Source of the DNA: Ruditapes philippinarum
Lineage: Eukaryota
Length of the DNA: 64,000 nt
NCBI RefSeq assembly: GCF_026571515.1
Contig: NW_026864408.1
Coordinates: 1-64,000 of the forward strand
Reading direction: 5' to 3'
Positions within the stretch are counted from its first letter, which is position 1. Each line of letters starts with the position of its first letter. The notes under the pieces were generated by a model that was not told the origin of the DNA, searched no databases, and saw only the letters and a list, made by a program, of their open reading frames with translations. Made by a program: the position numbers and the translations under genes. This document shows, piece after piece, positions 7,090 through 52,400 of this stretch.

Positions 7090-8730
7090 TTCTCTATTTT
7101 TTGAGTGCTTCAATCTTCTCAGGATCTGTCTTCACACCATCAGCACTAACAATGTGACCCAAATACTGGACTTGCAGCTTAAAGAATTCACACTTGGACC
7201 CTTAAAGTTTAACATTGTGCATCTCAAGACGTTGAAAGACAGACTGAAGGCGACGGAAATGAGAATCAATAGAATCAGAAAAGATGATAATGTCATCGAG
7301 ATAAGTCAAACAGTCACGAAGGTGAAGTTCGCCCATACAACGGTCCATTAGACGCTGAAACGTTGCAGGGGCATTGGTCAGACCAAAGCCATTCTGTTGC
7401 ACTCATAGAATCCGAGAGGCCCAACACTAAAGGCAGTCTTTTGCTTATCAGATTCTTTGACTGGGACCTGCCAATAACCTGAGTGAAGGTCGAGTTTAGA
7501 GAAGATAGTAGAATCAATGAGAGAATCAATAGTTTCGTCGAAGCGAGGAAGGGCATAAGCATCCTTGATTGTACGGTTGATCAGTTTCCGGTAATCGATA
7601 CAAAAACGCAAAGACCCGTCCTTTTTTTCCTTGCTAACACAACATTAGAAGAAAAAGGGACTCTTGGACTCACGGATCGCTCCTGCCCGAAATCATGTCT
7701 CGTAAATGCTCACGTACCTCCTTAAACATCCCTGGTGGTATTCGGCGATACGGGTCTTTAGAAGGTGTGGGATCAGACAGATTGATTTCATGTTCGACCA
7801 AGTCAGTAGAACCAAGATCAGTAGGCCCAGAGGAGAAAATATGTTCCCACTGACTGAAGAAGGAAGTCACCTTAAACTTCTGTTCAGAAGTTAAAGTTTC
7901 AGTGGGAATAGAAATACCAAGGTCATTAAGAGTCTTGTCTGAATTGTGGGATTTATCAGCAACGCCCTCTGAAGGATCAATGGTGCGAACAACAGACACA
8001 TCATGTAAATTACAAAGAGTCATTCTTGGATAAATGGCGATAGATCTAGCAGTCAAGTTACAAACACGTACTGGAACCCTGCAAAAAGAACTACCAGGTT
8101 GTAATTTAACCAATCTAGGGCACACATTCAACATAAGAGGATCAGTAGACTCTGTAACACCAGAAGACATTTTGCCAATATGTCTCACCTTTCCCTCAAG
8201 TGTTGTTGTTTCGAAAGGCTTAACAATGATAGTCTAATGATGAAGAAGAGTAACAGGTTTGGTGACAATGTCAGGCAAGGAAGATATGATGTCAGAAAGT
8301 GGAGATGATGTTGACTCTGTTCCTGATGACTTCAAAACGTTCAAAATGTTGGTGCCTATTATCAAAGGGACTCTGCAGGAGTATTCTGTGTCTGGAACAA
8401 TCAGAATAGGACTGAAAAAGATTGTGATGAAAGACAAATATCAAGAACTGAATATCCAAGATATGGTACCTTAGACTCATTAGCAGAAGAAATATCCAAC
8501 ATAAAATCGAACAACTGTGACATGACAGGCTGGGGCTTTAAAGATTTGAAGAATGAAATTCCAATAGATGAAATCATAGAGCCAGTATCTATCAAAGCTA
8601 TAGTAGAAGTACCATTTATAAGAATTTCAGATTCATAAGAAGAGCCAACAAGAGGAAATGAAGAAGCAGGGTCATTAGAAGGGGAAGTATGACCTCTCAT
8701 CTGCCCTGCGATGGAGGTCGACTAGTTTAA
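7090..8730 (-). pseudogene. Gypsy pol remnant: aspartic protease plus reverse transcriptase, frameshifted; RNase H and integrase not visible
   Basis: Protease motif ALIDTGSMIS (ORF 8401-8700). RT motifs RFCIDYRKL, SKLDLHSGYWQV, KTAF, FGLTNAPATFQRLM and YLDDIIIFS are spread across ORFs 7378-7611 and 7202-7402. Recognisable similarity stops near 7090, only ~750 nt from the 3' LTR. Confidence 0.93.
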
Positions 8731-9784
8731 AGGACTGGCAGAGGTTTTGACTTACTGAGTGGAAGATCTCTCTTGTTTTAAACCCTTGAGTTCTCGATAC
8801 TAGACAGCCTGGATTCCATGCCTTCCATCTGCTTAGAAAGGGCCCTTATTACCTGAAGAAGTTTACTATCTAGAGTAGTGACACACTGCTGTGCAGGAAC
8901 AGACTCATTAGGAGTATTAGAAGTAGTAACAGAAATATTGGCCTGAGGTTGCCTGCCTAGAGGAAAGATGGACAGCTAACAAGGAAAAGCGTAAGTCTTC
9001 CTCAATGGCTGTCAACTCTTTACGAAGATTATTGAAGTTGAGGTCCTTCCGAAAAAGAAATCTAGAGGCATTCTTAAGCTGTATATCACGAAGGCCTGAC
9101 CACAACCTACCCCGCAACATCTCATCCTTGGACATGCTATCAAGATTGCAAGGTATCCTGCTTAGCAACCTCTCCAGACGCAAACTATAATCAGCAACAG
9201 ACTTATCCACCTTCTGCTGTTCATTATAAAACTGTTTCTTCAACATTTCAGTTGAATGAACATTACCATAAATGCCATCTAACTCATTCAAGATCTCATG
9301 AACAGTGGCATTTTCACCTAAAGAACACCTCCGTCACTGCCTTTCAATGATTTACGAATGGCCTCCCTGATGGTAAATGGTGGATAATTACCCTTATTTA
9401 TGTCACAATTGACATCATAGCGCCATATCTCAAACATTGACGAGTTGTATTTCCCATCTCCTGAAAAAGAAGGTAACTCAGGGATACGGCTAAGTACCAA
9501 ATCCCTATTTGTCACAAAAGACAAGTATGGTTGAGGGTTAGGCATGGATGGAGGAATGCTATAAACAGGTGGAGGAAAGTGGACCTGATGTGTATTCTAT
9601 ATGTTCTGCTGATATGTTCCCGGATAGGAGTAGGTGTAACATCAAATGTATGACTTGAGTGTATTGTATGAGGTGTACTTGCCATCACATTTACTTGAAA
9701 CTTACCAGATTTCTGTAACTGTTTAGCAAAAAATTCCAGATTTGCATCTGAATAGTCTATGGACTGAGTTGTACCATCTTCCAT
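8730..9784 (-). pseudogene. Gypsy gag remnant (PNMA/Ma-like capsid), frameshifted
   Basis: LPSFSG...FEIWRYDV...AIRKSLKG (9318-9545) and LDGIYGNV...FYNEQQK...SVADYSLRLERLL...LWSGLRD (8917-9291) are PNMA-type gag signatures, split over three frames. Confidence 0.85.
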
Positions 9785-21269: not shown

Positions 21270-24099
21270 ATAGCCGCCTTTTATATAGTAAAGCGATGTC
21301 ACTCGCGTGCTGTTTTATTTTGGTTAAATTTAGTAACGTGTCTGATGTCCTTAATGTCTTAAATACTACATTTTTGCTCAAATACGATGTTTTATCGTTG
21401 GTCAATTGTTTAATAAAAGTTTATATATCGTTTAATCGGGATATAATTAATTAATGTTCATGACAATATGGGCAACACTGTATATATATATAAATAAGAT
21501 ACATTGTGTCGGATGCATGGCAAATAACGACATTTACTGAAGCGTACCCGTCATGTCACAGTATAAGAAGAGTACATGTACTACTAGTACGACGTAATAT
21601 AATTTTCGTGTGTTACCCCTTTACTTTCAACAACTGTGCAGATCTAGACAGACATTCGTCTATGTAGCATTTAATTTGGCTCCTAAAAAGGTATGCAGCG
21701 CACAGCGCAGCTATTTACGCATGCGTAAAACCTCTCGTGTATTATTGGTGACGCCTGTGAGCGGCGTCGTCTCTTATGGAATGCTTTTTATTTTGGCCTA
21801 TGGAAGGAGCTGTTATTATTAGCAGTTAATGTTATGTTGTGTTAATTAGTTTTATTTTTATTCGTAAAAATCAAGTAAACAAATATGTTGTTATTTTTTG
21901 TATTTAATAACTTTATGTAAAAAGCATGTGCATTGTGATATTATTTTTACAAAATTGCAGTCTCAGTGTAACAGTTTGTCCCGTACCTTTATTGGCAATA
22001 TTAAAACCCGGATTCCCATTATCGTTGTGGTGTACATTGTTGCCGCATTCTTTTTCATTCATTTATATATTTTCAAAATTTTCCTACAAGATTTGTTTGA
22101 AAATTTAGTGCAAAACCATTCAAATAAACGTTCATGTCGCAAAATTAAATTTCGTTTAGTTTTTTTATATAGAAGAAAGCTTGGAATTTACAAATCTCAA
22201 CCTTTCTTTTAATTTTTTTTATTTAAATACGTTTACTGTAAAAATTATATGACACATAACAGCATGTTACAACAAAACATATCAAAGCCACCATCAAATT
22301 AGACCAACTACTTGAGAACTGAGTAACTCTCAGGTACACTGTATGATATGATAAGATGATAAATCTTGGAGAGTGGAAGTCCCCTCACCAACCATGCTGG
22401 CAAACAATCGAAACCAAAACAATAATAAATAAAAAAAAAGCATAAAAACTGCGGACTCGTTTTAATAAAGCCTGTTCATGGAAGATTCTGGTAAGTGCAA
22501 GTTACCGTTCATGCCCCCTATCACCGGTTTAAGCAGTTAAGTCATATTATTATTATTTAGGCATGTTGTCCTGTTTCAATAGGATATTCATACGGTTTTC
22601 TTATGAAAGTAAAACATTCAACAAATAATAAAAACTTTAACAACGTCTTGACCAGTACATGCATTTTAAGTAACATAGTATTATGCAAGCGGCGAAGAAT
22701 CAACATAATAATAGTGTCATAAGCTTTTAGCATCAATCAGTAACTTTCTTCAAAGTCCTTACCTCCGCACGCAGTACAAAGTTGGGGTCTGTGAATCCAT
22801 CGGGTGAATATGTTCTTATGAGAGTATTTTTATTTGACAATACCAAGTGTCGTTTGATTGTGGGGGAAATCAAAGTGTTAAAGGCATAAAACAACTTTTA
22901 AAATTGATTTTATTTTATTTTTCAGATTAGAAATATGCATGATAAAATAAAATGTTAGATAATGACAAAACAATCAAATAAAAATAAACTTACTACACTG
23001 TAGTAGTCTGTGTTTACCGTGCGTGCCTAAGTTTTCCAAGATTTGTAAGAATATGCTTTCTTTGATACAAAGAATTATTCTCACTTAGAGTAATGGATAG
23101 ATGGAATTTATCTAAGTTTAACTTTAAACATGGTAATGTACTTACCATATGGCTAAACAATCTTTTGCTTTTTGGTCAATTTGACCATAAGTGAATATAT
23201 AATTATAAGCATTGTGTACAAAAGACAAAATATATTTTCATGCCCTAAGTGCATATACTTATTTTAAAAGGTTTGCCATTTCTTTAGAGCGGAAATGATA
23301 TTCATATTAACAGAAGCGTAATGTGCTTTTAACGTTTCTAAAATTTACTATGGTAGCTGAATTTCCAGGCGCTTTACTGACAACGCTTTCATATAAACCA
23401 TTTTAATAATTGATTTCACAAGAATCGAAAGCTCAAATGACATAAAATTAAAGTACGCTTTGTATTTCACGTACTATTTCTGTACAGGGCAGTTCCAAAG
23501 CTTTCGTCCAATATCTCATTCAAATGGATGGGTTCGCCGAAACACTGACTATGCCATGATTGTAGATGCAGCATAATCGGTATTGGGCTCGACTAGACGA
23601 AACAAATGAAATGTCTGTATATGAAAAAAAACGCGTGCTTCTTCCGATTTTGTAACTAGGGTTTACACTTCGGATATTTAAACAATAAACCTACAATTGC
23701 CTTAAAATAGTCTTATTGTTATTTGATGAAAGTTTTACTATCATAATAGTGTAGTCATACTGTTATTTAATAGGATAAATACACTGCAGTCAAAGTTCAC
23801 ATAAAAATCTGGAAAAGTGTGATCCCTCGCAAGCATTAATCACAACAAAATTACATGAAAATTGATTGAGTCTGTACATGAGGGATAAAGTAAAAGTGCA
23901 ACATCCCTTACGTTCCCTAGCACCGGCTTGAGCGTTACTAAATTTTCAACACCGTTTTCTCCATTTCTAACAATATCTGCTATGGAATTCCAAAGTGGAC
24001 GCATCAATCTGTGTTTCTTTCATTACACAGAGATTAATTTATTTGCGCATATCACAATTGTCCACCAACACCTCAATTACAATCACATTATAATCACAT

Positions 24100-27000
24100 T
24101 CATGAAGCGGATGACTCAATCACACATTTATCGTCATCTTTGAAGGTGTCACACAATGCCTGGTGAAATTGTTTTGTTGTTTGAGAGAAAAGGTCTACAA
24201 GATACACATGTCTTACACTGCTGTATTGCTCCTCGCGGAAAAAGTTCCTCACAGCTCCAACAATCAGAGGAGCCGCTGTCTTAGCAGGCCATCTACAATA
24301 GCAAATAAGAAATGATTTTTTTAAACATATACATTTGGTCGATGTATACGAAGTTTAAATAGATTGCATCATTTCTAAGTCAGTTTTGGCATTTTTTTTA
24401 ATTGCTTAAACTTTGATCGTGTTTATTTGAGCTTACGTGCAAAGTCCATTAAAAGTAAGACTTACTTTAAGTAATCTTTAATTCACAAATACAATTAGTT
24501 TTGTATTTTTTAAATTTGTCCATAAGCTTATGTAAAAACATATCTCTCCTAAAGACATGGGTTCGACCAATTTGTTTCTCTTTAAATAACAGCGACAGGA
24601 TCAAATAAAAATAACATTACTTTTAACGCATGTGGAAGCTGTACATTTTTAAAATACAATTTGAGACGCTTAAGAAATGTACTTGTTAACTACTTATATT
24701 ACGTTATGAAAATATTAAGTTTAGAAGTAGCAGAAATGTACAAAAACCAATTCCTCAAGGAATGTAAAAATTAGGAGGAATTGTGCACTAAAAGGCTTAA
24801 CAAGCAACATGTTCAATTAATGGGTAAAAATATATTGTATATTAGATAAAAATGGAAATATATGAATAATGTTTACGACTCCTAATACATTATACCTCAA
24901 CCAGCAATGATGAATATTTCCAGGAAAGTGCTTGGTTTTTTAAGATCAACCGGATATATTGGTCCGTTTTTCTTACCGCGTTGATCGTTTCGGCCATATA
25001 TTGAACTTCTTAGGGTCTATTTAAAATCATAACATAACATAGCCATAGCATAGTATAAGTGGTATCTTTGTATTACTCAAATTTTATCGACAAACGTGGA
25101 TTTCAAAGTGACTTTGATCATGGAAATGACCATTGGGAAAGACTACTAAGATGGCCGCAATCGTTGTTTGTCGTACATATTATGATCAATATACAAATTA
25201 CAGTCAGTTAAGAATAAAATTTGCCCGAGAAAAAGTTTAGTTGAAGTAAAGGGAAATAAATGCCACTGGAATGAAACCAGAACCTTATTTGATGCAATAC
25301 ATTTTTGACTGCTAGATGCTTGTCAAATTTTTACGTCGGGAAACTCCATCCACCGTGTTGTGCTCAAGTAGACTCTTTAAATTGATAAATCTGTTGTGAT
25401 AAACTGTTGGCTAAATATACCCAATGGCACAACAAGGATTATGAACATGCGTTCCTCAACCTCAGTTCTGATATGACTTGATTGTCTAACTGAGAAGCTT
25501 ACCACCTCCTAGTGGACAACAACATTGATACCTCAATTCTGGGGCTCAAATTTTCTGAACAGTAATTTGGATTTGACTCCATAAACTTTTTTAATAAAAC
25601 ACTGCGGACCCAATTACACCTTCAATAATACTAATGTGCTTCCTATACTTTACAATAAGCTTTATTTCTTGTGATTTGATTGCATGAATTGAATGACCAC
25701 ACGGAGGAGCCGATATAAATTTGACTCCATGTTCTTAGACACTGGTACCTTTTCATATTCTAAGATAAGTGATGACCTATACTCGCCAATAGCAACATAT
25801 CTTCTTTGTCGGAAGATGTGCCATCACAGAAAATGTACACGTATCGCAAGGCAATTGCCTCATACTGATTTCAAGCATTTTATTTTCATGTGGCAGCTTT
25901 AACTCGATGTTATGGGAGTCAATGTAAATTGTTCTTTGGCATACCAATGAATACTCAAGATACCACGATACCGCGTGTAATATAAAATTACTCTTTCATT
26001 CACAATATCTCACATACAGTCATGTCCATGAGCTAATTGTACAGATAAAGAAAAGGAAACTCAATAGATAGTGTGGAACATAATAGGTTTTAATGATACT
26101 GAAGCGGTTTCTTAAAGCGTCAAAGGAGATATAATATAAAATAACGATTAAAAACATAAAATAAATTTACCCAGAATATCCACATCCTATTGCTGGTATT
26201 GCAATGGTGCGAGCTTGTTTCCTTGACGCCTCCATTAGCACACGCCCGACCGTTTTCTTCAGTAGTGTTTCCTCCTCGGAATCCCTTTTGTCGCACACAG
26301 GACTATTCACGTGAATAACGTACTTTGCTTGTAAATCTCCGGCCTCACTTACAAACGTATCACCTTCGTCAATACTGCGCTGTGTTTGCAGAAACTGGTG
26401 ACACGCTGCTTGAATGCTAGATCCACCTGTAAAACGGGTACACAGCATTTATTCCAAATAGTTATGGAACATTTATTTCAACTGTAGAACAAACAATTAC
26501 TTCTGCATTACTTGAATGTGAAAATAAGCGTAATTATACATTTACAGTTTAATGTTGCTCGATTTCTCTAATTTTATTTGTTTGTTGATATACAGACATA
26601 CAAACTTTGATTAGCAATTAAGTGTTTCTACTGTTATATATACAAATGAAGGAATATTATCAGACGTTTTTTGTGATAAGTTCAGTTTGCTTTCAGTTTC
26701 TATTTATAAGCATGGAATATTTTCAAACAGCAATATATTCAACAAGGTATGTGTACCGAAAATACTAAACAAAATGTTCAACCTGCCAAACAAATGACTC
26801 CCAGTCGAATGCATCCTTAAGCAGTAAAAAGCCCTGTCAAGTATTATGAGAAAGAAATAGCCCATAAAGAAAATAGTCACAATTCGGTTTTAATTACTAT
26901 AGAAATGATATGTTTACCCTTATCCCTAATTGTTTTTGATATTCCGGTTTCGAAAGAAAGGCATTTGTTCGTGGTGTTGACAACAGCCTCTGCCTCAATG

Positions 27001-30000
27001 TCAACTAGTGACCCTTTCATGATAAAAATTCGCCTGCCACAAGCCATTAAACACTCTGCTATCTTTTCAGTATCTTTTGAGTTGACTATTTCCGGTTCTG
27101 ATTCAGTTTCTTTATCTTCCTCTTGTTTTTGACAGCTTTCTTTTGAACTTCTTGCCCCCGTATCTTCATCTTGGTTTTCATTTGGACAAAATGAACGTGT
27201 TGGCGTGTACACTTTTTTAAATCTTCGACCATATAAGCAATCTTTATGACTGGGTGAACTGTTATCTTTCCGGCTCATGATCTTACTCAGGTTTGGTTTT
27301 GCACATCTATTTCGTGAAACTTTAACCTGACCGAAAAGGTCTTGAAATATTTTCAGAGCGTTTCGTTTCCACATTTTTCGTTTTCGTGACCATATGCAAG
27401 CGTCTCTATATTCTTCTTTCGACAAGGATCTTAATAAAATACGTTGTTTTTCACCTTGTTTTCTCTCCGGCCAAAGTATCTTTGCGTCAATATAGATCAT
27501 TGTTTCTTCAAGTTTCTCTCTTTCTTTCTGATTACCAAGGACATACTCTAATTCCTCCTCATTAAACTCTGTATATTCTATTTCATCTTCACTGTCATCG
27601 TCTTTGTCTCTAGAGGGAATAAACTTTGGCTTTGGTTTAATTTTGGGTTTTTGTTTTTGGGCGTTACTTGAGTGTTTGATTGAACCAATACCATGATGTT
27701 GTGCTCTTTCTCGCTCTTGCGTGATTGCTGAAATTAAGAATTCGTAAAGGCATATTAAGAAGACAATTTGTTTAACTTCTTAGCATAACTTTAAATGGAA
27801 AAGCATGGAATACGCATACAATTGCCTATTTTCCGATCAGAATTCAAATGCATAATATTAATTGCATCATGAGCAACTGATAAGGTGCTTATTTGTGTAT
27901 TTACGCAATAAATTGTACAAAAATCTTCACCACAATGTTAACGTAAAAGACCTACCGATATAAAAGTCCGGATCAAGCATTTTGGCAGTATCTTCTAGTT
28001 TACAGTCAATCAAAATATTTAGGAAAGACCTGTACCAGTCCATTACGCGTCGTGGAAGATACATTAACAAAATGCAAGCAGCTCTAAGTGCACCATGATT
28101 GTTCTCTTCAGATGTTATCTCTTGTACATCCTCTTGCGTGAACACTCCTTTGCTTAAAAGATGAGGCAAAAGCTCTGATGGTCTTATTAAACCTATAAGT
28201 TCTGGGGCAAAGAGTTCGACAATTCGTACAAAGTTCCTGTCCTCAGGGTCATATTCGCCATCGAGGATTCTCACAATTTTAGGGTAGCCTAAAACAAGAA
28301 TGCTTCATATATTTAGCTCAAATTGAATCATATCTGACAATATCATTATTCAAAATGATCTTCAAATATCTTTAACAGATGTCAAACAATTCAATCACCA
28401 TTAATTAATCACTTATCATTCTGTTAATCTTTTAAAATATCTTGGATTTGTCACAATTTCGATAACAAATTATTATATTTCACGACTGATGTATATAAAA
28501 CTTGTAGCTTTTAGTGAATGAAAACAAATATAGCTGGTTGTGTTATATGTGTGAATTGAATACAGAGACCAATATTTAAGGTATAAGTGAAACGCAAGGA
28601 CATTCTTGGTGTAAATATTTAATAACAAAATGTCTGTTCTTGCCGAGACGCTTAACATCGTCAATATCAATGGGTTGATTCTTTTATGTATAAGAAATCC
28701 CTTTGAACCTACGAACCTATCAAGTTTGAGAAAGACACTGTATCTACATAAGGGTTCCTAAAATTTTAACACTTTTAACACTTTTAAGTCTCTTTTCGTT
28801 ATAAGAACTGGAAATTTGGCAATTGTTATTTCTTATCTAATCAGCGACATATCAGATATATATTTGTGTAAAAAGTACCTCCATTTTGTTCCAAAGCATC
28901 CCTTAATGCTGCAAATCTCCCTGGATCCTCTACACTGTCTAATAACATATCTAAAGCTTTTCTAGATGCTCTGATGGGACTTTTTTCCGCCAAAATGTCT
29001 GATTTTTGGTCTGAAAGAGTACAGTTTTAGTACATTTAGGAATATAACGAGTTAGTTAATTAGCATAAAGAAGGTGTGAGAGACATAATTTATGTAAACG
29101 CGTCTTTTATTTAATCTAGAATTAGTGAACTCAAGACCCATAGGGGCCTCAACTTCCTGAAAATTTTAAAGACACCAAGAAAAGTCAATTTTAGTGAATA
29201 ATGAAGTTGTATTATTGAATATTGAACTTGTATTTGTGAATAATGAAGCTGTGATAGCTGTATCAGAGAATACTAAAGTTGTACTAGTGAATAATGAAGT
29301 TTTATTAGTAAAAATGAAGTTAAAATAGTAAGTAAGGAAGTTATAATCGTAAATAATAAAATTATAATAGTGAATAATAAAGTTGTATTAGTGCATAATG
29401 AAGTAATAATAGCGAATACTGAAGTTGTAACAGTGAATGAATAATGAAGTTATAAAAGTGAATAATGAAGGTGTATTAATGAAACGTGAATAATGTAGTG
29501 AAAAATTAAGTTGTATTAGTGAATAATTAAGCTGTAATAGGGAATAATGAAGCTTTATTGGGGAATATACTGTACAGTTATATGCTATTCTTCAAAATTC
29601 AAACATTTTAATAATTTTCACACAGAATAAAGCAGAATTACGTGCCACTTTGTAAACGTTAGATTTAAGTTTTATTTTAAATCATAACACAATTCATCAA
29701 AATATTTCAGCACCATTGCCAAAACAACTAAAACATTGAAGAGAGAAAGGGGGACAGAGGGGGAAGAGGAAGAGAGAGAGAGAGAGAAAAGAGCATGATC
29801 ACAATTTTACCTGGGGTATAACATTGCAAGTATTGGATGAGAACATCTGGTTTTATACAATGGCTGATGTAGATCAAATGCTTTCTCAGGTTCTTTTCAA
29901 TTATTTCATCTCTCGAATAGTTTGTATCTTCTGCCTCTTCTTGTTCTTCTTCTTCATGTTAAAAGAGATAGAATTGAATAAAATATTTTCTTTTTTTACA

Positions 30001-30272
30001 ATTTACATATCAATCTATAATTTTTTATTAAAACCATAAAATCCTATTAAAGATAGAAATAAAGACATAAATTTTTGTATTAGCTTGACTTCAAGGGCAT
30101 GGTAATTTATTATTTTAATCTTTTATATATTATTTATTTATTTATTTCATTTATTTATTTATTTACTATCTAAATTATAAATTGATTAATTTATTAATTT
30201 TTTATTTAATTATTTATCTTTTTAAACTTATTATTTATTGTAACTTACACACTCATTCATTCATTCATTCAT

Positions 30273-30318
<46 letters not shown>

Positions 30319-33300
30319 AATACATTGATTAATTTGTTTATCAAATTATNNNNNNNNNNNNNNNNNNNNNNNNNNNNNNNNNNNNNNNNNNNNNNNNNNN
30401 NNNNNNNNNNNNNNNNNNNNNNNNNNNNNNNNNNNNNNNNNNNNNNNNNNNNNNNNNNNNNNNNNNNNNNNNNNNNNNNTTAATTTATTCATTTGTTTAT
30501 TTAATTATTTATTGTTTTAAGCTATATTTATTCATCAATTAATTAATTGATTCATTCATTCATTCTTTCATTCATTCATTCATTCATTCATTCATTCATT
30601 CATTCATTTATTTATTTATTTATTTAACTAATACATTGATTAATTTATTCATTTGTTTATCAAATCATTTATTGTTTAAAGCTTTATTAATAAATTAATT
30701 AATTAATTTATTTATTTATTTATTCATTCATTCATTTATTTTATTTATTTATTTATTATTTAACTAAAACATTGATTAATTTATTCATTTGTTTATCTAA
30801 TTATTTATTGTTTAAAGCTATTTTTATTCATCAATTAACTAATTAATTCATTCATTCATTCATTCATTCACTCACTCATTCATTCATTTATGTTTTAAAA
30901 CTTTATGTATTTATTAATAAATAATTCGTTAATTTATTTATCTATTTATTCATTCATTTATTCATTCCTAAATTTATTTATTTATTTATTTATTTATTGA
31001 CATAATCTTAAATAGCTTTTAAATTACCCTTTCAAATACTCATTTAACACTTATTATGATGGGCCTTAAGCCCGTCTCACACAAAACACGGTTGGACACA
31101 CGATTCCCATACGGTATACTCGGTTATACACGGGTTGACTGGTACGAGTTTTGAGCTTCAATCGTGCTTGTGGATTAGTTGGCACGAATTAGACTCGAAT
31201 ATAGCACGAGTATGTACGAATTGAGCACGGATATACTCGGTCAAGCAAGGTTTGAACACGATTTGCATACGAATATATACGACTGCTGTACGGTTCCAAG
31301 TACGGTCTAGTACGGTCTGGTACGATTAAACACGACTTTTACTCGATTTACTCGACTTTCACAGGGTTTACATAGGGTCCCGCCGACTTTTGTTCGAGTA
31401 AAACTCGAAATATCAAACATTTGTGTATGTTTTGATATAAATTAACCCGTTTTGATGTCTTGGCTTTCGAAATTTCAACAAAGAACACCTGTATATAGAT
31501 CATTATAAAACTGCACGTTCGTAACGTCGCTTTTCATTGGATAATCGTGACGTTTAAATAGTTTTATATACACGGCTGTTGTCGATTTATAAAGAAATCT
31601 CGCTTTATTCCTCTAAAAATGATGCTTGCTGGGTTATATTTTACAAACAGCCGTTTATATAAGGCCATATAACCTGTCAACAATCTTTTTAACTAATATT
31701 AACATCAATAAATGAATAAAAAGGTGAAGCAATGTAAAATGAATGTGTCTTTTTTCTGTTGTGCAGCGGTTGCTGGAGGGTCCACCGAGCTGGCATTGGA
31801 GTCTGAATCCCTGGGAGACACGGTTATTGCCGGTTGGTCCTCCACCTTATCAGGGTCAATAAGTTTGAGTGGTCGGTGGGCCTGGATGGTTCTTCTTGTA
31901 TTCCTTCTATGCGTCCAAGACTTCTTCTTTGGATACATTCTAGTGTGATGCAGCAAGCACTATTGGTAGGGTGGCAGCAGTTAGTTGTGTTTTTTGTACC
32001 GTTCTTGCTGAGCCGTGTTAGACCGTACGAGGCAGTGTGAGACCGTGTATACCCGTACTTTACCGTGTCGGCCATGTATGTTTCGTATATGAACCGTATT
32101 GGTCATATGGCGATCGTATGAAACCGTGTGTGCACTGTTTTGAATTACCTATCTTGTGCAATTTGGTGTTAATCGGTGTATGTAGGACTTGGGGAGGCCC
32201 CTCGAAGTTCCCAACGATTTAATACGACCTTTGAAGGGTTTGGGGCCCCCACTCGGGGAAAATGGACTTCACATTTACGGGTATAAGGCCCCCTCATACG
32301 GTCTCCAACGGCCCCTTTACGGTTTGACGGGTGCTTATACGGTTGATAAACGGACAGGGCATCCGTACCATTTTTTTTTAAAATTTTTAAAAATCATACA
32401 CGGCTTACACGGATACACTCGAATTGCCCGAGTGTAACTCGGATAACGCTACGGTTAGTTCGGTTGAATGTACGGTTTACACGGGTGGCCAACCGTGTAA
32501 GCCGTGTGTCCTGTGTGAGATGGGCTTTATCGCTTGTTCAAGGAAAAGGGATTGGGTATAGTAAGAGGGATTGCAGTATTGTGACGTAATTTTATCGTGG
32601 TACTTCCTTCATCTCATTGACAATGAAGTGTGATAAAATGAATACACTTCGAAATATAAAGTCAAGTGTCAAATTATTATTCAAACACATGCAGATATTT
32701 TAAATACAATACATATACTATACTAGGCAACATAACCTTATTAACTGAAATAGTACGGACACCTTTTTTAATCTACGATAGTACATAAACCTACTTATTT
32801 CAAACCTGGAATAGTTACTTTAACTAATGAATATCCAGCATTTGCACTAAGTGATGTCATAATGTAAATCATTTACGGCTCCAAACATCAATTTAGCTTC
32901 GATTTGTGTTGTTGTTTTTTTTCTTCTTTTTTTCTTCTTTTTTGTTGTTGTTGTTTTTTTTTTTCTTTTTTTTTTCTTTTTCTAAATAAAAAATACAAAT
33001 ATTAAATGAACATTTTACTCTATTTATCTTCGATCCAAGTCAAAACATCCATATAGACTCCATAGTGTACGCTTGCATTCTAGCCTCGTTTTTATTTTTC
33101 AGGTCCAAAAGTTCCATATCAAAAGAATATTGTACTTGTAGAAACTGTACCATTAATACAAAAAATAGGTTAAGTATGTTTTTTTCCTAGGAATATGGTT
33201 GTGCAATACATGTATGTAGCAATTTATTGAGTATCGCAATATTTATCTTGCAATATGTATTGTAAGATGTTTTCAGATATCGCAATATATTAAAGCTATA

Positions 33301-34387
33301 AAATTTAAATAAAAACATAAAATTCTTTTAAAGATAGAAGTGTAATCACATTGCATTACCTTGACTTCAAATGACATTTACAATTTTACATTAACTTATT
33401 TAAACTTTTTCATTTACAATGCCATTTTAACACATTGTGCAATCTTTCATTAAAGGCAGTGCCTCTGACATACCATATATTGGGACATAATATTAAATGA
33501 TAAACTCTTTAATTAAGTCATTTAATATAGTTAACAATATATCGCAATAAAGTTCAATATGCCTGTAAATATTGCAATATATCGCAATATGATTTTTCTT
33601 TGCAATATCCACCCCTACTTTAGAATCTGCGGTGTGAAATAAAAAAAGTCCTTTACACAGGGTTTGTGTACAAACTGATTCTTTTTGGATTTGTACACTT
33701 TGCAAAGCCATAACGGGTGGGTTACCCCCCTCGTTCAAATAAAATTTCAATATAGGTTTAAATAATTTCAGTAGCGCAACGAGTAAAAAACCTAGTTTAT
33801 ATATTACAGTATAGCTGTTCTACGTACCTGAAGTATTTAAAAGTAGTAATTTTGTAAAACTAAATTTAGAATGTATAGCCTGATTTTTTGGTGACCTGTT
33901 GAAAATGTGTTTACAAGTACACATACATACCCAGTGCGTTAAGTACTACATACCATGCTCATTGATTGCTTCATTTTTTTCATTTATCACAACTTTATCA
34001 TCTTAATTAACTGTAATGCTTTATTACTACAGTACTCAACAATAAATTAAAGCGCTTTCTTTACATGTGATTTTTTTAAGTAAGTGAATTTGCATATTTA
34101 CCCGACACTTTTGGTAATTTGCCAGTTGTATCAACGGCAAAGTCCGTCTGCGTGTTCGTAGAAGCGCGTGCAGGTGTATGTAGGTGTACGTCAGACTGTG
34201 AGCCTTGATCTTTTGTATTACATTTCGTGATTGACGAACATTTTAAATGATTACGACAGAAGACATAATCATCTGGTGACATATTTGCAAATTTTAGCTG
34301 CAAAGACACGACAGGATCCTCGTAACTTGCCTCGGCTGACTGTTCATCAAGCTCTAACTTACACGGCCTTTTGTTTTCTTGGCTCAT
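24100..34387 (-). CDS. Tandem-CARD (RIG-I-like 2CARD) + PARP14-like KH segment + macrodomain protein, 716 aa, 7 coding exons
   Basis: Exons 34387-34102, 29951-29811, 29010-28879, 28288-27956, 27727-26918, 26426-26171, 24292-24100. All introns GT-AG, phases 1,1,1,1,1,2; 2151 nt open, TGA at 24102-24100. CARD1: LRKHLIYISHCIKPDVLIQYL...DPGRFAALRDALEQNGGYPKIVRIL. CARD2: IVELFAPELIGLIRPSELLPHLLSKGVFTQEDVQEI...DWYRSFLNILIDCKLEDTAKMLDP. Macro: KGSLVDIEAEAVVNTTN...AKYVIHVNSP...IAIPAIGCGYSG|WPAKTAAPLIVGAVRNFF. Exon 1 and the exon 2 acceptor are the least certain parts. Confidence 0.85.
29190..29560. repeat. ~21-bp minisatellite (gtgaataatgaagttgtatta)
   Basis: Many diverged copies in intron 2 of the CARD-macro gene. 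Confidence 0.85.
30120..31000. repeat. Compound (TTTA)n/(TTCA)n satellite with higher-order unit; contains assembly gap 30350-30479
   Basis: The spacer taactaatacattgattaatttt recurs between microsatellite blocks. Confidence 0.85.
31069..32526. mobile_element. PIF/Harbinger non-autonomous DNA transposon
   Basis: TIRs AGCCCGTCTCACACA / TGTGTGAGATGGGCT. 3-bp TSD TTA at 31066-31068 and 32527-32529. Dense subterminal ACACGG/TACGG/CCGTGT repeats. No transposase. Confidence 0.85.
33189..33618. mobile_element. Probable decayed hAT-type MITE with subterminal TATCGCAATA repeats
   Basis: ATCGCAATA/TTGCAATAT motifs cluster at both ends; right end cacccCTA; left terminus degenerate. Confidence 0.4.
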
Positions 34388-40400: not shown

Positions 40401-43400
40401 CCAGCAGTGTCATATTTACACAACTGCTTTTGATCTAAGCGCTAAGTTTAAAAAAAATCTATTGACAGTTTTAAATCTTTATGTTTATCTTACTGTAGCA
40501 TATGCCTTTATACTTTCATTTGTTATATTTTCTCAAGATGAAAAAATTACAAAGCGAAGTAACACTTTTCAATGACACAAATTTCAAATTGCAATTGTAA
40601 TTTCAAATCAAATCAAATCCATCCATGCAATGCCATTTTACATTACATGGAATAATTCTACGTCTATGAACTCAACAGAGATGTGGCAAAATAATAATAC
40701 ATAATATTATACTATATTACCTGTTATACTCATAAAACCGTAGGCTGATTGTAGGTGAAAAGCAAACACAAAATATAAATGAATTTTCTGTTTAATTGAA
40801 TTTTTGTAGAATAAATTTCTCGGTGTGTTAGATCCATCTTAAGCTGTTGTTCTAGCTCAAATCCATGACATCTTGGCTGCTAAAGAAACCGTATACAAAT
40901 GTGTTTTATCACCAAGGAGGTCTTTGACATAAATTACAGTTATCAATTTATAATACCGACTAAGATGACTGGAGTTTCAACCACTTATTTTGTACATCAT
41001 AGGAAATTCTTCCCTATCTGATAGATAGCAAGTCCCCAGATTGACATAATACCATTTTGTGACATAAATTTATATATTTCGACATTTAACGTTAGTGTTA
41101 TGACATATAACGGTAAGGGGAAATGGTGCGACATTTAGCGTCATGATTGCGACATTTAATGGCAAAATATTTTGAGACATTTAGCGGCGGTTGCGATATT
41201 AAGCGGCAATATCGCGAAGTGCGGCATTTAGCGGAGAGTGCGACATTTGGCGGCGCCACAACGTCAAACCCCAAACTAAAGTTTGGCATATAATATAAGA
41301 AACACTCATTAAAATGAAAAGTTTGTTCAAGTTATATTTCCTTTCGTTTTTTTCCTGTTTATTTTGTTGTTCGGTGCCCCTTTTGAACGGTTTGTCCATG
41401 ACGTAACCCGATATCACTATCTGTAGTGCGACCTTGCAATACAATAGTCTGAGCCTTAAAACAATGGGCGTTCATATATATATTTTTTTTTTTACTTTTA
41501 ATAAAATACTTTTACCTTTTTAAAAAACTCAATTAGTGTATTGACTAAACTAGCTAGTGGCAGATTTAATACCGTTTGACTTGTACGGATAGAAGACACA
41601 TATATACCCCATTACGCTTTAGTTACTGTAACAATATCCAATTCTGGGCGATTTTTACGGCCGCAACTTACTTTTGTTATATGTTCACCGAGCTTGTGTA
41701 ACATCGAATAGAGTTCATCGGAGGATATAAACCCATCACCATTTTCATCAAATATACAGAACACCTCGTGCAGTTCTTTTTCCGGGTCGATTGACAACTT
41801 CGTTGAAAAAATCTTGACAAACTCCTCAAAGTCTATCGTACCGGACTCTGGAAAGGAAATATTTATTTGTGTATAACATTTTAAAAGATTTTGACAGGAC
41901 ATTAACACAGCGTGAAATTATGAAATCGTGTCATCGAGTTTACGAACGATATCTAAAAACATATCATAATTATCATGGATAAACTAGTACAATGTATTTT
42001 ATTATCATTATACAAACAAATTGTTGACATATTTTGTCAATTACGCTACATTAAATAAACATTAATCATGCGATTAAATGCATTTAGATAAATTTTTATT
42101 TGAACTTTATCCTTATAATAAATAGATAAAAAAAAATAAACTTACTATCTAGATCAACCGAATGAATAAGTGCTTGAACCTCGGAAACGGTTGGCCGCTG
42201 TCCGAGGGCGTGTAGGACCGCCCCTAACTCCTCCTTCGTTATCATACCATCCTGATTCTTGTCAAACAAGACAAACGCCTCTTGTAACTCTGTGGGAATA
42301 TTCAAAGTTTAGATGTTAATTAATATAATTATTATGGTGTTCTAAATTTAAGCTGTATTTAGTTGTTTGTCGTTGTTGTTGTTTTTTTTTTTGTTTTTTG
42401 GTTGGTTGGTTGGGTTGGGTTGGTTGGTCGGTTAGTTGGTTTTGTTTGTTTGTTTGTTTGTTTGTTTTTGGTGGGGGTGCTTTTTCTGTTTTAAGCAACA
42501 TCAACACTGTTGTAATCAAATGGCGTTACTGACGCAGGAAAAATCTCCTTACATTATTTCAGCTGGGGTTCAGTAAGATGGTTCCGTAGACTCCTTTCAC
42601 GAAAGAATTCAAAGTCCCTATCGGATTCAAACCCACAGCGGTAAGGGGCAAGTGGTTTGAAACCCCTCGGCTACGGACGCCCCCATCTACCTGGATGAGC
42701 ATGGATCAAATCAGGTATTTTTGGATAGTATTCAGTGTCAAATCTTCGGCTAATTTCGACTTCAACTGTATAAAGCTGAATATCAGGGGAGATAAATAGA
42801 GTAAAGATTTTGGACTAGTCTGTGATGAGTTGTCTTACGTAAATCAACCCAATATAAATTATATAAAACATATCTGAAAAATTATCTTCTTAAAACTCCG
42901 GATTATCTCGGTTTGACAGAAGATATGATAGGTTTAAGATACCGTTTGATTTTAAAATGTTTTTATAAGAAGATAATGTGAATTTGACCTATTTTTTCTT
43001 AAATTATTTCAAGATAGAAATTTCGAGTAATTTGTCAAAAACTGTGAGTGTTAACTCACATATTAATAAGAATTTGTTACAAACAACAATAAAAAACATT
43101 ACAAAATAACAACAACAACAACAACAGCAACTATCAATATATGTTATATACATTAAAGGCACATAACGAACAAATTGTTACTTCTTAAGAAAATTCAAAC
43201 ATGATTTTAAAACATTTAGATAATGGTTTTAGAGCATGTAAGTTGCTTGTTACCTGAAGAAAATAGCTGTTAATCATAAAAGTAAAAAAATGAAAGCATA
43301 GTAGTATTTTGACTTCCATACAAAACACTAAATCACTGTAACTAGTTTACTGCCAAAAAGCAACAGAAGAAAAAGAAAGGTCAGGTAATTTGCATTTGCC

Positions 43401-46400: not shown

Positions 46401-49400
46401 CAGTATATTTATTTTCAAAATCATTTCAAATGATGATTGGTTATTGACCAGAATGTAAGATGGACATGTCCGTTTAACTTTAAGATATTTAGCAAGGTAA
46501 GGAAATATAAACAAAGAAGCAACATTGGTCGTCTGTAAGGAATAGTGTTTTGCAGTGTTTTAATCATAAGACAAATACCTTTTTAAATTGATCCGAGAGT
46601 ANNNNNNNNNNNNNNNNNNNNNNNNNNNNNNNNNNNNNNNNNNNNNNNNNNNNNNNNNNNNNNNNNNNNNNNNNNNNNNNNNNNNNNNNNNNNNNNNNNN
46701 NNNNNNNNNNNNNNNNNNNNNNNNNNNNNNNNNCACACCCACTTTGTTTACATAATGACGTAATCATGTGTACACTTAAACAATAGAATGGGTGACACAA
46801 ATGTTTTAATCCCGCCAAAAAAAAAAAATGGATGCCTTTATGAATAAAAAATGGCGCTGAATAACAATAGAAAGCTTAGCACACAAATTAAACCCGCCAA
46901 AAAAAATAAAAATGGTTGCCTTATTAGATTTGAATAAAAAATGGCGCACTGTTCTTCCATAACAAAAGAAAACGAAACATAATTGTAGGGGTCACATAAA
47001 TATGGTCTAAAGTACACAATAGAAAAATGTTACCATAACTAATTCGGTCAAAATATACAAAGGAAAACTATAATCAAATTATTGGTTTAAACTATGAAAA
47101 GAAAATTAGGACAAAATATTATTAATAAGTCTAGACCAGCTGTGGTCAACTCATCTAATAAGCTACTTTAGTATCTAGTATTTCTTCTTCTTGATATTGT
47201 ATTTTACTATCATCAGAAAAATGTAAAGTTTAATCAATTGTTTACATAATGACTTAAGAGTGTGTACTTTATAACAATAGAACAGGTAACACTCCAAAAA
47301 AGTCAATCTTATACATGTAAATGCAAAATTACATTTATTGTTTTCTTATAATATAATGAGGCCTGTTTTGTTATTTTTCCAAAAATTGACATGTCATATT
47401 TTTGCACATGTTGACAAGAAACAAACCTATGCCACTTGTTTTGTATATAATTCTCTTCATTAAAGTTACTATGCATCACATCCAAGGCCAGCAATTCAAC
47501 CTCTCATTGAAGGCAAGTACTTTCTCTGTGGTTCATACAATGCTTGATCTAATTAATTTACTGTGTATTTCTAAAGCAGTAAATTTGATAAAACTTGATA
47601 GTCAGGTGGGATACATACAAAACAAGTTACCTTTTATTTAGAATTCATACCCAATTATTGTTTTCTTATAAGATAATGAGGCCTGTTTTGTCAATGGTTT
47701 CAACACCTACATGTATCTTTAGAACTCATTAGAGTAAAACAAAACAATAATTGTCAATGAATAATCCTTAATAAGAAAATAAATCTTTCTTTACCAGCTA
47801 GTAAATCTTGCTTTTATCATATTTATGGTTTAAACTCTTAACCAGACAATGTGGTTACCTGATAAAACAAACAATCCTTTAAGTATGTATGACCAGTATG
47901 ACCCCAGATGTAACATATATTTCAACCAGGTAATAAATCCACAAAGGGACGCCTTTCTGTGTCGATGTTTCGGATCAGTTATGAACATTCATTTATTCAA
48001 TGGAGAAATTTTAAATGATTTGATTTACCACTTTTAAGCGAGGATAGGAATTACAACCTAAAATTATATACATTGTACTGAAACTTTTTTTTATTCACAT
48101 TCTTATTTTTTATATTTTGATCTAGCAAAGATTAAACATTTTCTGCTGTTAATTGCCAGAACGAAGAAACCAATTAAATCTTACATTTCAACACTGAAGT
48201 GATAATGTCATCACCTTGGAATTTGTATAGCAATGAACCGTCAGATTTTTAACATCTGTGAAATTGATGTCAGCGCCAAGATAAACATTGGTCCTTTTAT
48301 GACTTGATAACAGAAAGAAACAATAATTAAAAGTTTTTATTTCATGTCAATAAGTAAGCCCTTTGTATACAGGTGTGTCCCTAAATTACTCACTTCTTGT
48401 CCACTATTAAAAACGAGTTCTTCCTTATAGTTGCCACAGTATAACTATTTTCCTGACATGCTTGAAGTGGTAATATGGATTTTACTTAATATTCAAAAAT
48501 ATCATCAGAGCAAAAACAGCTATTTGGTGATAGATTTTTATGTCATGTTTTCACATACCCATGACTAGATTTCTCTCTCCAGATAACTTTTTTTTGCATT
48601 TCAACTATATACACCCAGGCGCAACATGGATTAGTTGGACGATTTAAGAAAAGGATATACATAAATTTATAAACAAAATAAAACAAAGATCTAATAATAC
48701 AGTTTAATTTATTTATTACAGACTGCATTTACAAAAAGAAATATTTAAAATAAAACGCATTTGGCATATGATAAAAAAAAATGTTCCAATCATAATGTAC
48801 CACACTAACATTTGTCCTTTTGTCTTTCCAAAATATGAATAAATAATATAAACTTTCACATGTCTTTAATAATTTGTTCATTTATTGATAAAATGTCAGT
48901 ATTTATCACTACTAGTTTCTTTTTCACTGTCATCATCATCATCATCATCATAATCATCATCATCATCATCAAATGTTTCTTCAAGTTCTGGTAATGGGTA
49001 CTTGTCCATAACACGTTCTAACATAAATTTTCTTTTTTTAACAGCATACTGTATAGCTTCATCAGTTTCGAAATTATCTTCCTCTCTCAATCTTTTAACA
49101 GTTCCCATGATCTTTTTATGTGTAGGATTGCGCTGAAGTGCATACATTTTTCCAATAAAATCCAAATAAACTTCTCTGAATGCTTTATGATACACGGAGC
49201 GTAATTTTTCAAAAGCTTTATTTCTTATTTCTTCAAGAGAGCTATCAGGGTCTTCATTACGCATTTTACTGGCTGTTTCATTTAAAACGTCATCTCCTTG
49301 TTCATATGTGAGCTCTGTAAAATACTTCCAGATGTCAATATGTTTGTTCTTGTTAACATCATCATATTGTTTGCCATTGTCATTCCCTATAGTAGAAGAT

Positions 49401-52400
49401 TCATCGTCATAATCTTGTTCACTGTTATCGTCTTCTTCGTAATGATGAGATTTGGATCTATTAGGTCTCAACCGATCGAAAATGTTTCTATATAGATAAG
49501 GTTTACGATTTGGTTCCTCATCTGATGTATTTCCATCGCTGATATTATTTTCAGACATACTGTTCTTATGTTTGAGATGCGAATGCCTATTTAAATTGTA
49601 CTTTTTATTGAATTTTTTATAACACAAAAGACATGTGAATACCATTATTTTAAGCGATCAAATGGCAAAATTAATGCCAATTCTCCTTTTTATACTCCCA
49701 ACTAATTTATTTCGTTTCTCATTTTCTCGTTTTGCTTGCTAAGTGGCTCAATTGGGTGTTCATTAACTCATTTTGCTTGCTCAGTCGCTCATTTTATTTG
49801 CTCATTTGCTTATTTTGCTTGCTCATTTGCTCATTTGGTTGCTCTTTTGCTCATTTTGGTTGCTCATTTGCTCATTTCACTTGCTCATTTGCTCATTTGC
49901 TTGCTCATTTGCTCATTTCACTTGATCATTTGCTCATTTCACTTGCTCATTTGCTCATTTGGTTGCTCATTTGCTCATTTTACTTGCTCATTTGCTCATT
50001 TGGTTGCTCATTTGCTCATTTTGGTTGCTCATTTGCTCATTTTGGTTGCTCATTTGCTCATTTCACTTGCTCATTTGCTCATTTGCTTGCTCATTTGCTC
50101 ATTTTGGTTGCTCATTTGTTGCTCATTTGCTCATTTTGGTTGCTCATTTGCTCATTTGGTCGCTCATTTGCTCTTTTGGTTGCTCATTTGCTCATTTTGG
50201 TTGCTCATTTGCTCATTTGGTTGCTCATTTGCTCATTTTGGGTGCTCATTTGGTTGCACATTTGCTCATTTTGTTTGCTAATTTGCTAATTTAGTTGCTC
50301 ATTTGCTCATTTCACTTGCTCATTTTCTCATTTGGTTGCTCATCTGCTCATTTCATTTGCTCATTTGCTCTTTTTGGTTGCTCATTTGCTCATTTAATTG
50401 CTCATTTGCTCATTTTGGTTGCTCATTTTACTTGCTCATTTGCTCTTTTTGGTTGCTCATTTGCTCATTTAACTTGCTCATTTAACTTGCTCACTTACTC
50501 ATTTGGTTCCTCATTGCTCATTTTACTTGCACATTTGGTTTCTCATTTGCTCGTTTTGGGTGCTCATTTGCTCATTTGATTGCTCATTTACTCATTTTTC
50601 CTTGCTCAGTCGCTCATTTTAGTTGCTCATATGCTCATTTTGGTTGCTCATTTGCTCTTTTTGGAGTGTTACCTGTTCTATTGTTATAAAGTACACACTC
50701 TTAAGTCATTATGTAAACAATTGATTAAACTTTACATTTTTCTGATGATAGTAAAATACAATATCAAGAAGAAGAAATACTAGATACTAAAGTAGCTTAT
50801 TAGATGAGTTGACCACAGCTGGTCTAGACTTATTAATAATATTTTGTCCTAATTTTCTTTCAATAGTTTAAACCAATAATTTGATTATAGTTTTCCTTTG
50901 TATATTTTGACCGAATTAGTTTATGGTAACATTTTTCTATTGTGTACTTTAGACCATATTTATGTGACCCCTACAATTATGTTTTCGTTTTCTTTTGTTT
51001 ATGGAAGAACAGTGCGCCATTTTTTTATTCAAATCTAATAAGGCAACCATTTTTATTTTTTTGGCGGGTTTAATTTGTGTGCTAAGCTTTCTATTGTTAT
51101 TCAGCGCCATTTTTTATTCATAAAGGCATCCATTTTTTTTTTTTTTTTTTGGCGGGATTAAAACATTTGTGTCACCCATTCTATTGTTTAAGTGTACACA
51201 TGATTACGTCATTATGTAAACAAAGTGGGTGTGGATCCCCCCCCATTCATCACATTCATTCATTCATTCATTCATTCATTTATTTATTTATTTATTTATT
51301 TATCTGCTGTTTGGCCAATGAGTGACTTTGGAAATTGTAACAGAACACTTTAGTATAAATAAGCTTTGGAAAAAACAGCAAGTTTTAGTATTAATCGGCC
51401 TGGTTATTACCAGCAAACAAGTCTGGAAATATGCAAATCAAACACTCATTACACAAAAAAAGAGAAAATATTTGATATAAGAGCTTAGCAAATACATGAA
51501 ATGTGTATACATGTAATCGTCTGCGTCTTTTGGGTTTCAGCAAGGAGGAAATTTAAAGAGCTTTAGTACCATCTTATTTTCAAAAGATTCATCAGAAAAT
51601 TATAAAGATCTTTTAACACATTTTAGACATCAAAAGGCGGGTGAAAAGATTTTAATTATTTTCCGATGAAAATATTTAACGTATTTGATAAATGGGACTT
51701 TAAATAATTTTCATAACTTTTTATACAGTGGTGTATTCTTCAGAACAAAATCTTGTTGTGAAGTTTGAAAATACCTTGCTCTTAATATCTTAAAAATCTC
51801 GAATACCACAAACGCTGCATTGTTCTTTGTATATTATACTTCTCGGTGCTTTAAATACAGGTCATGATAACGGAGGCTGGCACCATGCCGTAAATACCTA
51901 CAGCTCTGGAAATCTGCCTAAAACTTTTACCTTTACTCTAAATGTTTATTCCGGTTTAATGGCTAAATGAAACATGAAATATACAATTGAAATAAATACT
52001 TAAAGCACTAAAAACGTGCAAAAACATTTTTGGCTGAGAAACAACAAGGTAAAAAATATGTATTTATTGCATTTTATTGGTGTTCATTTTCACTAAATCT
52101 TTTACTACATCTGTATAGGATTTTCTTCCCGTATGCAAGTTTATATTATGGTTGTTTCCAGGAATACCGTGCTTAAATAAAATTGATTCCATTCTTTTAG
52201 AAATTTTTGAGGAGGGGGGGGGATTATTAATTATCATTTTTGTGTTTAAACAATTTTTGTTTCGCGTTACTCTTCCAACATAAAACTATGGAAAACGTGC
52301 ATGTGAAAAATTTAATAAAATCTGAAGACAAAATGATTTTTCGTCTGTGTCGTGTACAAACATTTGTTGATTTGTTGATATAAAATTTCGACGTGTACAA

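Follow-up and report, generated by a model that had tools for sequence, protein, structure and literature searches.

A CARD-CARD-KH-macrodomain protein of the clam Ruditapes philippinarum with a PARP14-like macrodomain and an altered nucleotide pocket

Introduction

The first macrodomain (macro 1) of PARP14 is a hydrolase that is blocked by the G832E substitution (PMC10499325), and hydrolase macrodomains carry two signatures, N-x6-GG[VLI] and G[VIA][YF]G (PMC10470015). PARP9 and PARP15 are described as partial duplicates of PARP14 (PMC13224862), and about ten Crassostrea virginica proteins are reported in which DED-TRADD-N is fused to PARP14-like domains of the KH, RRM, macro and ART types (PMC8195603). 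Oyster RIG-I, in turn, binds MAVS through its CARDs (PMC5557890), so a CARD partner of this kind exists in molluscs. Here we describe a gene from the Manila clam Ruditapes philippinarum that joins elements of these systems. It lies in positions 1 to 64,000 of contig NW_026864408.1 (assembly GCF_026571515.1; hereafter the window), and its product consists of two CARDs, a KH-like domain and a single macrodomain.

The clam protein resembles PARP14 macro 1 and the bivalve PARP14-like proteins XP_053389477.1 and XP_052261029.1 in fold (Z 29.4, root-mean-square deviation (rmsd) 1.3 over 186), tree position, the KH1 domain upstream and, probably, intron sites. Unlike PARP14, it is devoid of RRMs, KH2-8, macro 2/3, WWE and PARP domains, has CARDs in front, and has lost both hydrolase signatures and the adenine-contacting Asp of macro 1. 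Like the oyster fusions, it combines a death-fold adaptor with PARP14-type KH and macro domains within a bivalve lineage expansion; the oyster proteins (PMC8195603) keep RRMs, several macrodomains and an ART domain, with the enzyme as effector, whereas the clam protein has CARDs, one altered macrodomain and no catalytic domain. It would share with PARP9 and PARP15 an origin through partial PARP14 duplication, but these retain two macrodomains and an ART-type domain and lack any death-fold domain. With RIG-I and MDA5 it shares an N-terminal CARD_2 pair and the sensor-plus-CARD layout; unlike them, it carries KH1 and a macrodomain at the sensor position, with neither a DExD/H helicase nor a C-terminal RNA-binding domain. 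The macrodomain of macroH2A is similar in fold, in a reader-type loop 2 without the aromatic residue and in some local motifs, but the clam protein has no histone fold, its introns differ, the trees place the two in separate clades, and most macroH2A sequences keep the Asp. In literature searches, which did not extend to subscription journals, no paper listed described this locus or any protein of the CARD-CARD-KH-macro type. Death-fold/PARP14 fusions are already known from oysters; the clam protein differs in that a piece of PARP14, stripped of its catalytic parts, probably sits on CARDs of the RIG-I type.

Gene structure and domain architecture

Seven exons on the minus strand form one open reading frame of 716 amino acids, identical at 716/716 positions to XP_060566581.1 (R. 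philippinarum LOC132725467, annotated 'uncharacterized'). A preliminary description of this DNA had singled out a macrodomain at 24100..27035; this region corresponds to the last three exons and thus to the C-terminal end of the protein, with the domain itself starting at ~27070 (residue ~518), just beyond that range. All motifs quoted in that description are present, spread over three minus-strand exons (the 3' end of 27727-26918, 26426-26171 and 24292-24100), and the intron phases are as it gave them, with K-G|G split by a phase-1 and S-G|W-P by a phase-2 intron.

Exon 1 (34102..34387, start codon at 34387) encodes a low-confidence N-terminal region (residues 1-95) that is homologous in paralogues from Mercenaria, and its model is identical to XP_060566581.1. 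CARD1 is divided between exon 2 (29811..29951) and exon 3 (28879..29010), which contributes the second half of a modelled helical bundle (109-195) matching the CARDs of Apaf-1 and RIG-I/MDA5; exon 4 (27956..28288), with phase 1 at each end, encodes CARD2, of the RIG-I/MDA5/MAVS-type CARD_2 family (Pfam CARD_2 E 2.4e-13, above cut-off). Every CARD exon is flanked by phase-1 introns, which fits a shuffled cassette. Exon 5 (26918..27727) holds a KH1 remnant, a charged linker and the N-terminal part of the macrodomain, and is read as a PARP14 segment shortened internally; its KH1-like domain of PARP14 type (27324..27593, residues 343-432) is folded in the structure model. The macrodomain core is encoded by exon 6 (26171..26426), which ends in the loop-2 motif G-Y-S-G, where Ser652 replaces the aromatic residue required for hydrolysis, and the C-terminal helices and strand by exon 7 (24100..24292, stop codon 24102-24100).

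Splicing was checked by aligning contigs of four runs, two recorded as RNA and two guessed to be RNA, to 23800-30060. These RNA-type contigs cover the exons in this stretch and bridge five of the six joints, the exon 1-2 joint lying outside it. Four joints, including that of exons 2 and 3 and both macrodomain joints (exons 5-6 and 6-7), are each bridged in 3/4 runs, and the exon 4-5 joint in 2/4, its position defined to within a few bases.

Three further observations concern the gene and its borders. Exon 1 contains two TQT-like motifs, kept in the Mercenaria paralogues and not in the related Logan protein P0007, which we take to resemble LC8 dynein-light-chain anchors and which could help the protein dimerise. 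Intron 1 contains an assembly gap (30350-30479) within an AT-rich microsatellite, and a candidate exon at ~31700-31960 was dropped as it is absent from XP_060566581.1, has no Pfam match and has no fitting donor. Just downstream of the 3' end, at 23800-23910, is a short high-copy repeat found in many transcript contigs.

Pfam matches in the full-length protein are to CARD_2, with 71 bits over two stretches, to CARD, and to Macro, with 95 bits against a cut-off of 22; exon 6 alone matches Macro with E 2e-18. A model built on a 39-row alignment (predicted local distance difference test (pLDDT) 75, predicted template modeling score (pTM) 0.46, with domain packing uninformative; a single-sequence fold reached pLDDT 36) is confident in four regions: residues 109-195 (CARD1), 201-310 (CARD2), 345-430 (an alpha/beta domain) and 518-713 (the macrodomain). 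In the VIA structure search the CARD pair matches the tandem CARDs of MDA5 and RIG-I with Z 12-13 and rmsd ~9, and a Mercenaria relative matches RIG-I by sequence (E ~1.5e-4); Atlas feature matches reached 0.88 for the CARDs, under threshold, and none was returned for the whole protein. The protein thus has at its N-terminus the tandem of CARD_2-family CARDs that typifies RIG-I-like receptors, and Pfam detects in its 716 residues no DExD/H helicase or RNA-binding C-terminal domain. No histone H2A fold is found either, the Pfam matches being to Macro and CARD families only, whereas the controls P0161 and P0166 match Histone and H2A_C. RRMs, tandem macrodomains, WWE and the PARP catalytic domain are absent, the stop codon at 24100 following directly after macro 1, and no further PARP14 pieces were found in the 64-kb window. 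The gene product is a PARP14-like derivative, not a member of the PARP14-like family.

The CARD-CARD-KH-macro layout recurs in Mercenaria mercenaria (P0002, P0153, P0005 and P0160, with P0004 and P0015 partial), and P0007 has the same architecture. Macrodomains of the family are 51-57% identical between species. Word-index searches, which are insensitive, returned no member outside Ruditapes, Mercenaria and P0007; words from exon 6 retrieved one distant protein, and the family was recovered through linker and CARD queries. Another Mercenaria protein, P0159 (LOC128554300), bears the same CARD pair on a Roc-like P-loop (Roc E 2.7e-4, under cut-off) rather than on KH-macro, the pattern of a signaling cassette shuffled onto different sensors. 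Its LOC number is close to those of two family members.

Origin of the macrodomain

The macrodomain very probably derives from a bivalve PARP14-like first macrodomain that was carried along with KH1, lost the KH domains between and everything downstream of macro 1, and became attached to a cassette of CARD exons with phase-1 borders. Of 383 domains extracted, the 368 that reach 120 residues were used for a FastTree phylogeny, in which the family (support 100) lies within a 36-row clade (97) of PARP14-type first macrodomains. An IQ-TREE analysis of 45 selected rows nests it in 24 rows at 98/96, and in another of 41 rows, 8 of them macroH2A, the groups that enclose it comprise 19 rows (97/87) and 21 rows (99/96); macroH2A forms a separate clade at support 100 (IQ-TREE). 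Among the 19 closest PARP14-type references, 8 are named bivalve records. The clam macrodomain is 30-40% identical to 19 PARP14-type domains and 24-27% to four macroH2A domains; 36 diagnostic columns agree with the PARP14-type set and 5 with macroH2A; and eight-sequence profiles score 184-197 bits for PARP14-type sequences (10 draws) vs 115 for macroH2A.

Gene organization points the same way. The macroH2A loop-2 acceptor lies 7 nucleotides before a Phe codon in 31/31 loci (chosen by motif context from the 99 macroH2A reference loci), and that of the clam gene lies 1 nucleotide before the matching Trp codon, two codons off the macroH2A site. Nine spliced macroH2A loci have a phase-0 intron near the domain start, a phase-1 intron seven codons upstream of the clam phase-1 site and another phase-1 intron further on, a pattern taken from spliced alignments and seen in 8/9 loci (L016 is unclear). 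Neither macrodomain intron of the clam gene coincides with a macroH2A intron. Among stored proteins, 12 end <=12 residues from the loop-2 motif, and 8 of these stop exactly at the read-through end of the clam intron, namely the clam gene's own fragment and 7 others, including the RRM-KH1-macro protein P0132; 8/27 short proteins listed start just before the same Gly-Gly. These ends, of proteins and not of their genomic DNA, suggest introns common to the clam gene and PARP14-type genes.

The KH1 remnant, placed upstream of macro 1 as is the KH domain of PARP14-like proteins, provides a third line of evidence. A profile of residues 343-432 from five family members, searched against 178 stored proteins enriched for PARP14-likes, matches KH1 of PARP14-like proteins (best independent E-value 2e-6; reversed control 1.1). 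All five members match only KH_PARP14_1 of Pfam in the KH region (best E 8e-5), the clam copy remaining sub-threshold at 14.5 bits vs a cut-off of 21.

The preliminary description had proposed instead that a macroH2A-type domain was exon-shuffled into an immune protein, citing macroH2A-like motifs. At the quoted motifs, an alignment with PDB entries does bear out a resemblance to human macroH2A, but PARP14 scores as well or better; for the four motifs concerned, mean matches to bivalve PARP14-type and invertebrate macroH2A sequences are 5.2 vs 5.2 of 11, 2.5 vs 3.0 of 6, 8.4 vs 8.8 of 19 and 3.3 vs 3.5 of 7. Conversely, VVNTTN, which had been called PARP14-like, fits macroH2A better (mean 1.9 for PARP14-type vs 3.5 of 6). 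A mosaic of the two was rejected: the 5 macroH2A-like columns are scattered, and the last exon has 14 PARP14-like columns vs 3, with no block. Several points weigh against a PARP14 ancestry. Approximately unbiased (AU) tests leave a grouping of the family with macroH2A unrejected (p 0.182 and p 0.113). The PARP14-type references were the 150 best matches to the query, hence chosen by similarity to it, and the 99 macroH2A loci, collected by scanning metagenome contigs for motifs, include no named clam macroH2A; two full-length macroH2A references have matches to Histone, H2A_C and Macro. In fold searches, macroH2A comes first with Foldseek and with the Atlas, and VIA gives PARP14 macro 1 a narrow lead of 2-3 Z (29.4 vs 27.5); since Foldseek and VIA disagree, fold ranks were dropped as evidence of ancestry. 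Nesting among mollusc PARP14 macrodomains, the outcome that would speak against shuffling, is what all three trees recover with high support, although the AU tests do not formally reject the macroH2A grouping. With the trees, both intron sites and the KH1 remnant countering it, a macroH2A origin is not supported and is largely refuted.

The nucleotide pocket

The preliminary description had also reported an altered ligand pocket, and this is borne out: the change is real and family-wide, and, as judged from an alignment of 11 family rows, including four near-copies of P0007, with the 25 nearest non-family rows, both published hydrolase signatures are lost. In the motif G-S-L (27006..27014), Ser537 replaces the Asp that contacts adenine; Ser is present in 10/10 family rows with a residue at this site, Asp in 22/22 nearest relatives and in 5/7 macroH2A rows. 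Loop 1 (26940..26978) reads Asn551-x6-Thr-Gly-Ile where hydrolases have N-x6-GG[VLI], the FETGI motif occupying 26954-26940 on the minus strand. Its first Gly is Thr in 9 family rows and Ser in 1, vs Gly in 14/22 relatives, and its second Gly is kept in 10/10 (Gly559 in the clam copy). The loop-2 aromatic, a change that had been missed, is Ser in 11/11 family rows, vs Phe/Tyr in 17/24 nearest relatives. The loop-1 Asn is Asp in 8/10 family rows and in 17/22 relatives, which makes this change older than the fusion. With N-x6-TGI in loop 1 and GYSG in loop 2, the clam domain has neither MacroD-type signature.

These replacements have counterparts in characterized macrodomains. PARP14 F926A still binds ADP-ribose and loses most activity (PMC10470015), a loop-2 Tyr-to-Ala change raises binding and lowers hydrolysis (PMC7232374), and reader macrodomains without the loop-2 aromatic are described in a preprint (bioRxiv 10.64898/2026.08.12.744356) in which an Asn-to-Asp change in PARP9 macrodomain 1 (MD1) increases affinity fourfold and lowers activity. 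The suggestion that the domain is not a hydrolase is thus strengthened, and its activity is probably absent or weak, with two points to the contrary: an active rubella hydrolase has Ser at the first loop-1 Gly (PMC10878246), and the clam copy retains Asn551.

G-S-L alone does not imply a variant ligand, as had been suggested, since Ser or Asn serves in place of the adenine-site Asp in some alphavirus macrodomains (PMC7232374). Because Ser can replace this Asp, the clam macrodomain retains a Gly at the position of PARP14 G832, and loss of the aromatic is a reader pattern, we lean slightly toward the view that ADP-ribose, or mono-ADP-ribosylated (MARylated) protein or RNA, is still bound. This balance is narrowed by PARP9 MD1, in which Phe-to-Ile markedly lowers affinity as well as activity (bioRxiv 10.64898/2026.08.12.744356), and the three pocket changes combined may abolish binding altogether.

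Pocket variation is also seen elsewhere. Several bivalve-type PARP14-like first macrodomains (P0009, P0061, P0098, P0104, P0111, P0013 and P0023) likewise have no loop-2 aromatic or no loop-1 Gly pair, and eraser loss may be common across bivalve PARP14 expansions. In loop 2 of P0003, a fragment from a metagenome, Asn takes the place of Tyr. Non-synonymous differences that separate the window from RNA contigs are dense at 24170-24225 and 26217-26345, in the macrodomain exons.

Proposed function and alternatives

We propose, tentatively and short of an even expectation, that a PARP14 eraser domain has been turned into a reader mounted on RIG-I-type CARDs, the whole acting as an ADP-ribosylation sensor. 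During infection, clam PARP14-like enzymes would mono-ADP-ribosylate protein or RNA; the KH1-macro part would gather the protein on these MARylated substrates and leave the mark in place; and the CARD pairs clustered in this way would nucleate a MAVS-like or caspase CARD partner and thus trigger an immune signal. A caspase is as possible as a MAVS-type factor: CARD1 matches Apaf-1 (Z 12.2, rmsd 2.0 in VIA) as well as it does RIG-I, so that the partner may be of either kind. A bolder version, which we consider doubtful, is that venerid clams built a receptor for ADP-ribosylation itself, in which the macrodomain reader and KH1 (for RNA) replace the RIG-I helicase, and MARylated RNA or protein, or interference by viral macrodomains, would be read directly as CARD signaling.

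Of the alternatives to a sensor, the best surviving, itself unlikely, is an integrated decoy or protein-binding module: KH1 and macro 1, no longer binding ADP-ribose, would lure a pathogen antagonist or protease through their likeness to PARP14, and an attack on this bait would free the CARDs. Three simultaneous pocket changes fixed in the family are compatible with such a role, and positive selection is reported on PARP14 macrodomains (PMC13224862). Among the coding variants listed between the window and RNA contigs, 15/18 are non-synonymous, 9/12 in the macrodomain exons, as expected of a pathogen-facing surface, although these counts come from listed rows and may mix paralogues; the excess favors a pathogen-facing role and keeps the decoy alive. 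Set against this, the same pocket residues across species and the between-species macrodomain identity suggest a binding function that was kept rather than decay. We know of no antagonist that such bait would serve.

Less likely still, the protein would be a negative regulator: brought to MARylated foci, its CARD pair, which has no helicase attached, would dampen signaling through RIG-I/MAVS or a caspase. RIG-I-type CARDs without a helicase would suit this role, and CARD-only dampeners are known in mammals, but the same CARD pair on the Roc-like P-loop of P0159 is the pattern of a signaling cassette. It is improbable that the domain is still an active de-MARylase held at CARD complexes, perhaps one specific for RNA: descent from a hydrolase-type macro 1, the retention of Asn551 and Gly559 in the clam copy, and the single change that gave a PARP9 reader domain RNA de-MARylation (bioRxiv 10.64898/2026.08.12.744356) argue for it, whereas the family-wide loop-2 Ser, where most relatives have Phe/Tyr, and the Asp that replaces the loop-1 Asn in most family rows argue against it. 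A domain shuffled in from histone macroH2A, or a macroH2A/PARP14 mosaic, is very improbable, since the motif likeness to human macroH2A, the Foldseek and Atlas ranks and the non-significant AU tests are contradicted by trees, profiles, the 36:5 columns, introns and KH1, with no mosaic block.

Other features of the window

Two exon-like pieces on the minus strand (3772-3620 and ~2502-2298) belong to a second, unrelated death-fold-like gene, with a weak Pfam CARD match (E 0.057) that is lost when the sequence is trimmed. A retrotransposon remnant spans 7670-9333; it includes a gag/PNMA-like open reading frame at 8917-9333 and, on the minus strand, pieces that resemble a protease. An EF-hand pair exon of a calmodulin-like gene lies at 41612-41917 (minus strand), and a second assembly gap at 46602-46733. 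At 48896-49657 (minus) and 49675-50294 (plus), a 253-residue open reading frame with a weak C2H2 finger and an acidic tail adjoins a tandem repeat in which several frames are open.

Implications

How antiviral mono-ADP-ribosylation becomes a signal is poorly understood. If the sensor proposal is true, one small protein, with a PARP14-derived reader beside RIG-I-type CARDs, would make the idea of the ADP-ribose mark as an immune trigger directly testable, and a natural conversion of an eraser into a reader, so far confined to a few clams, would be offered for study.

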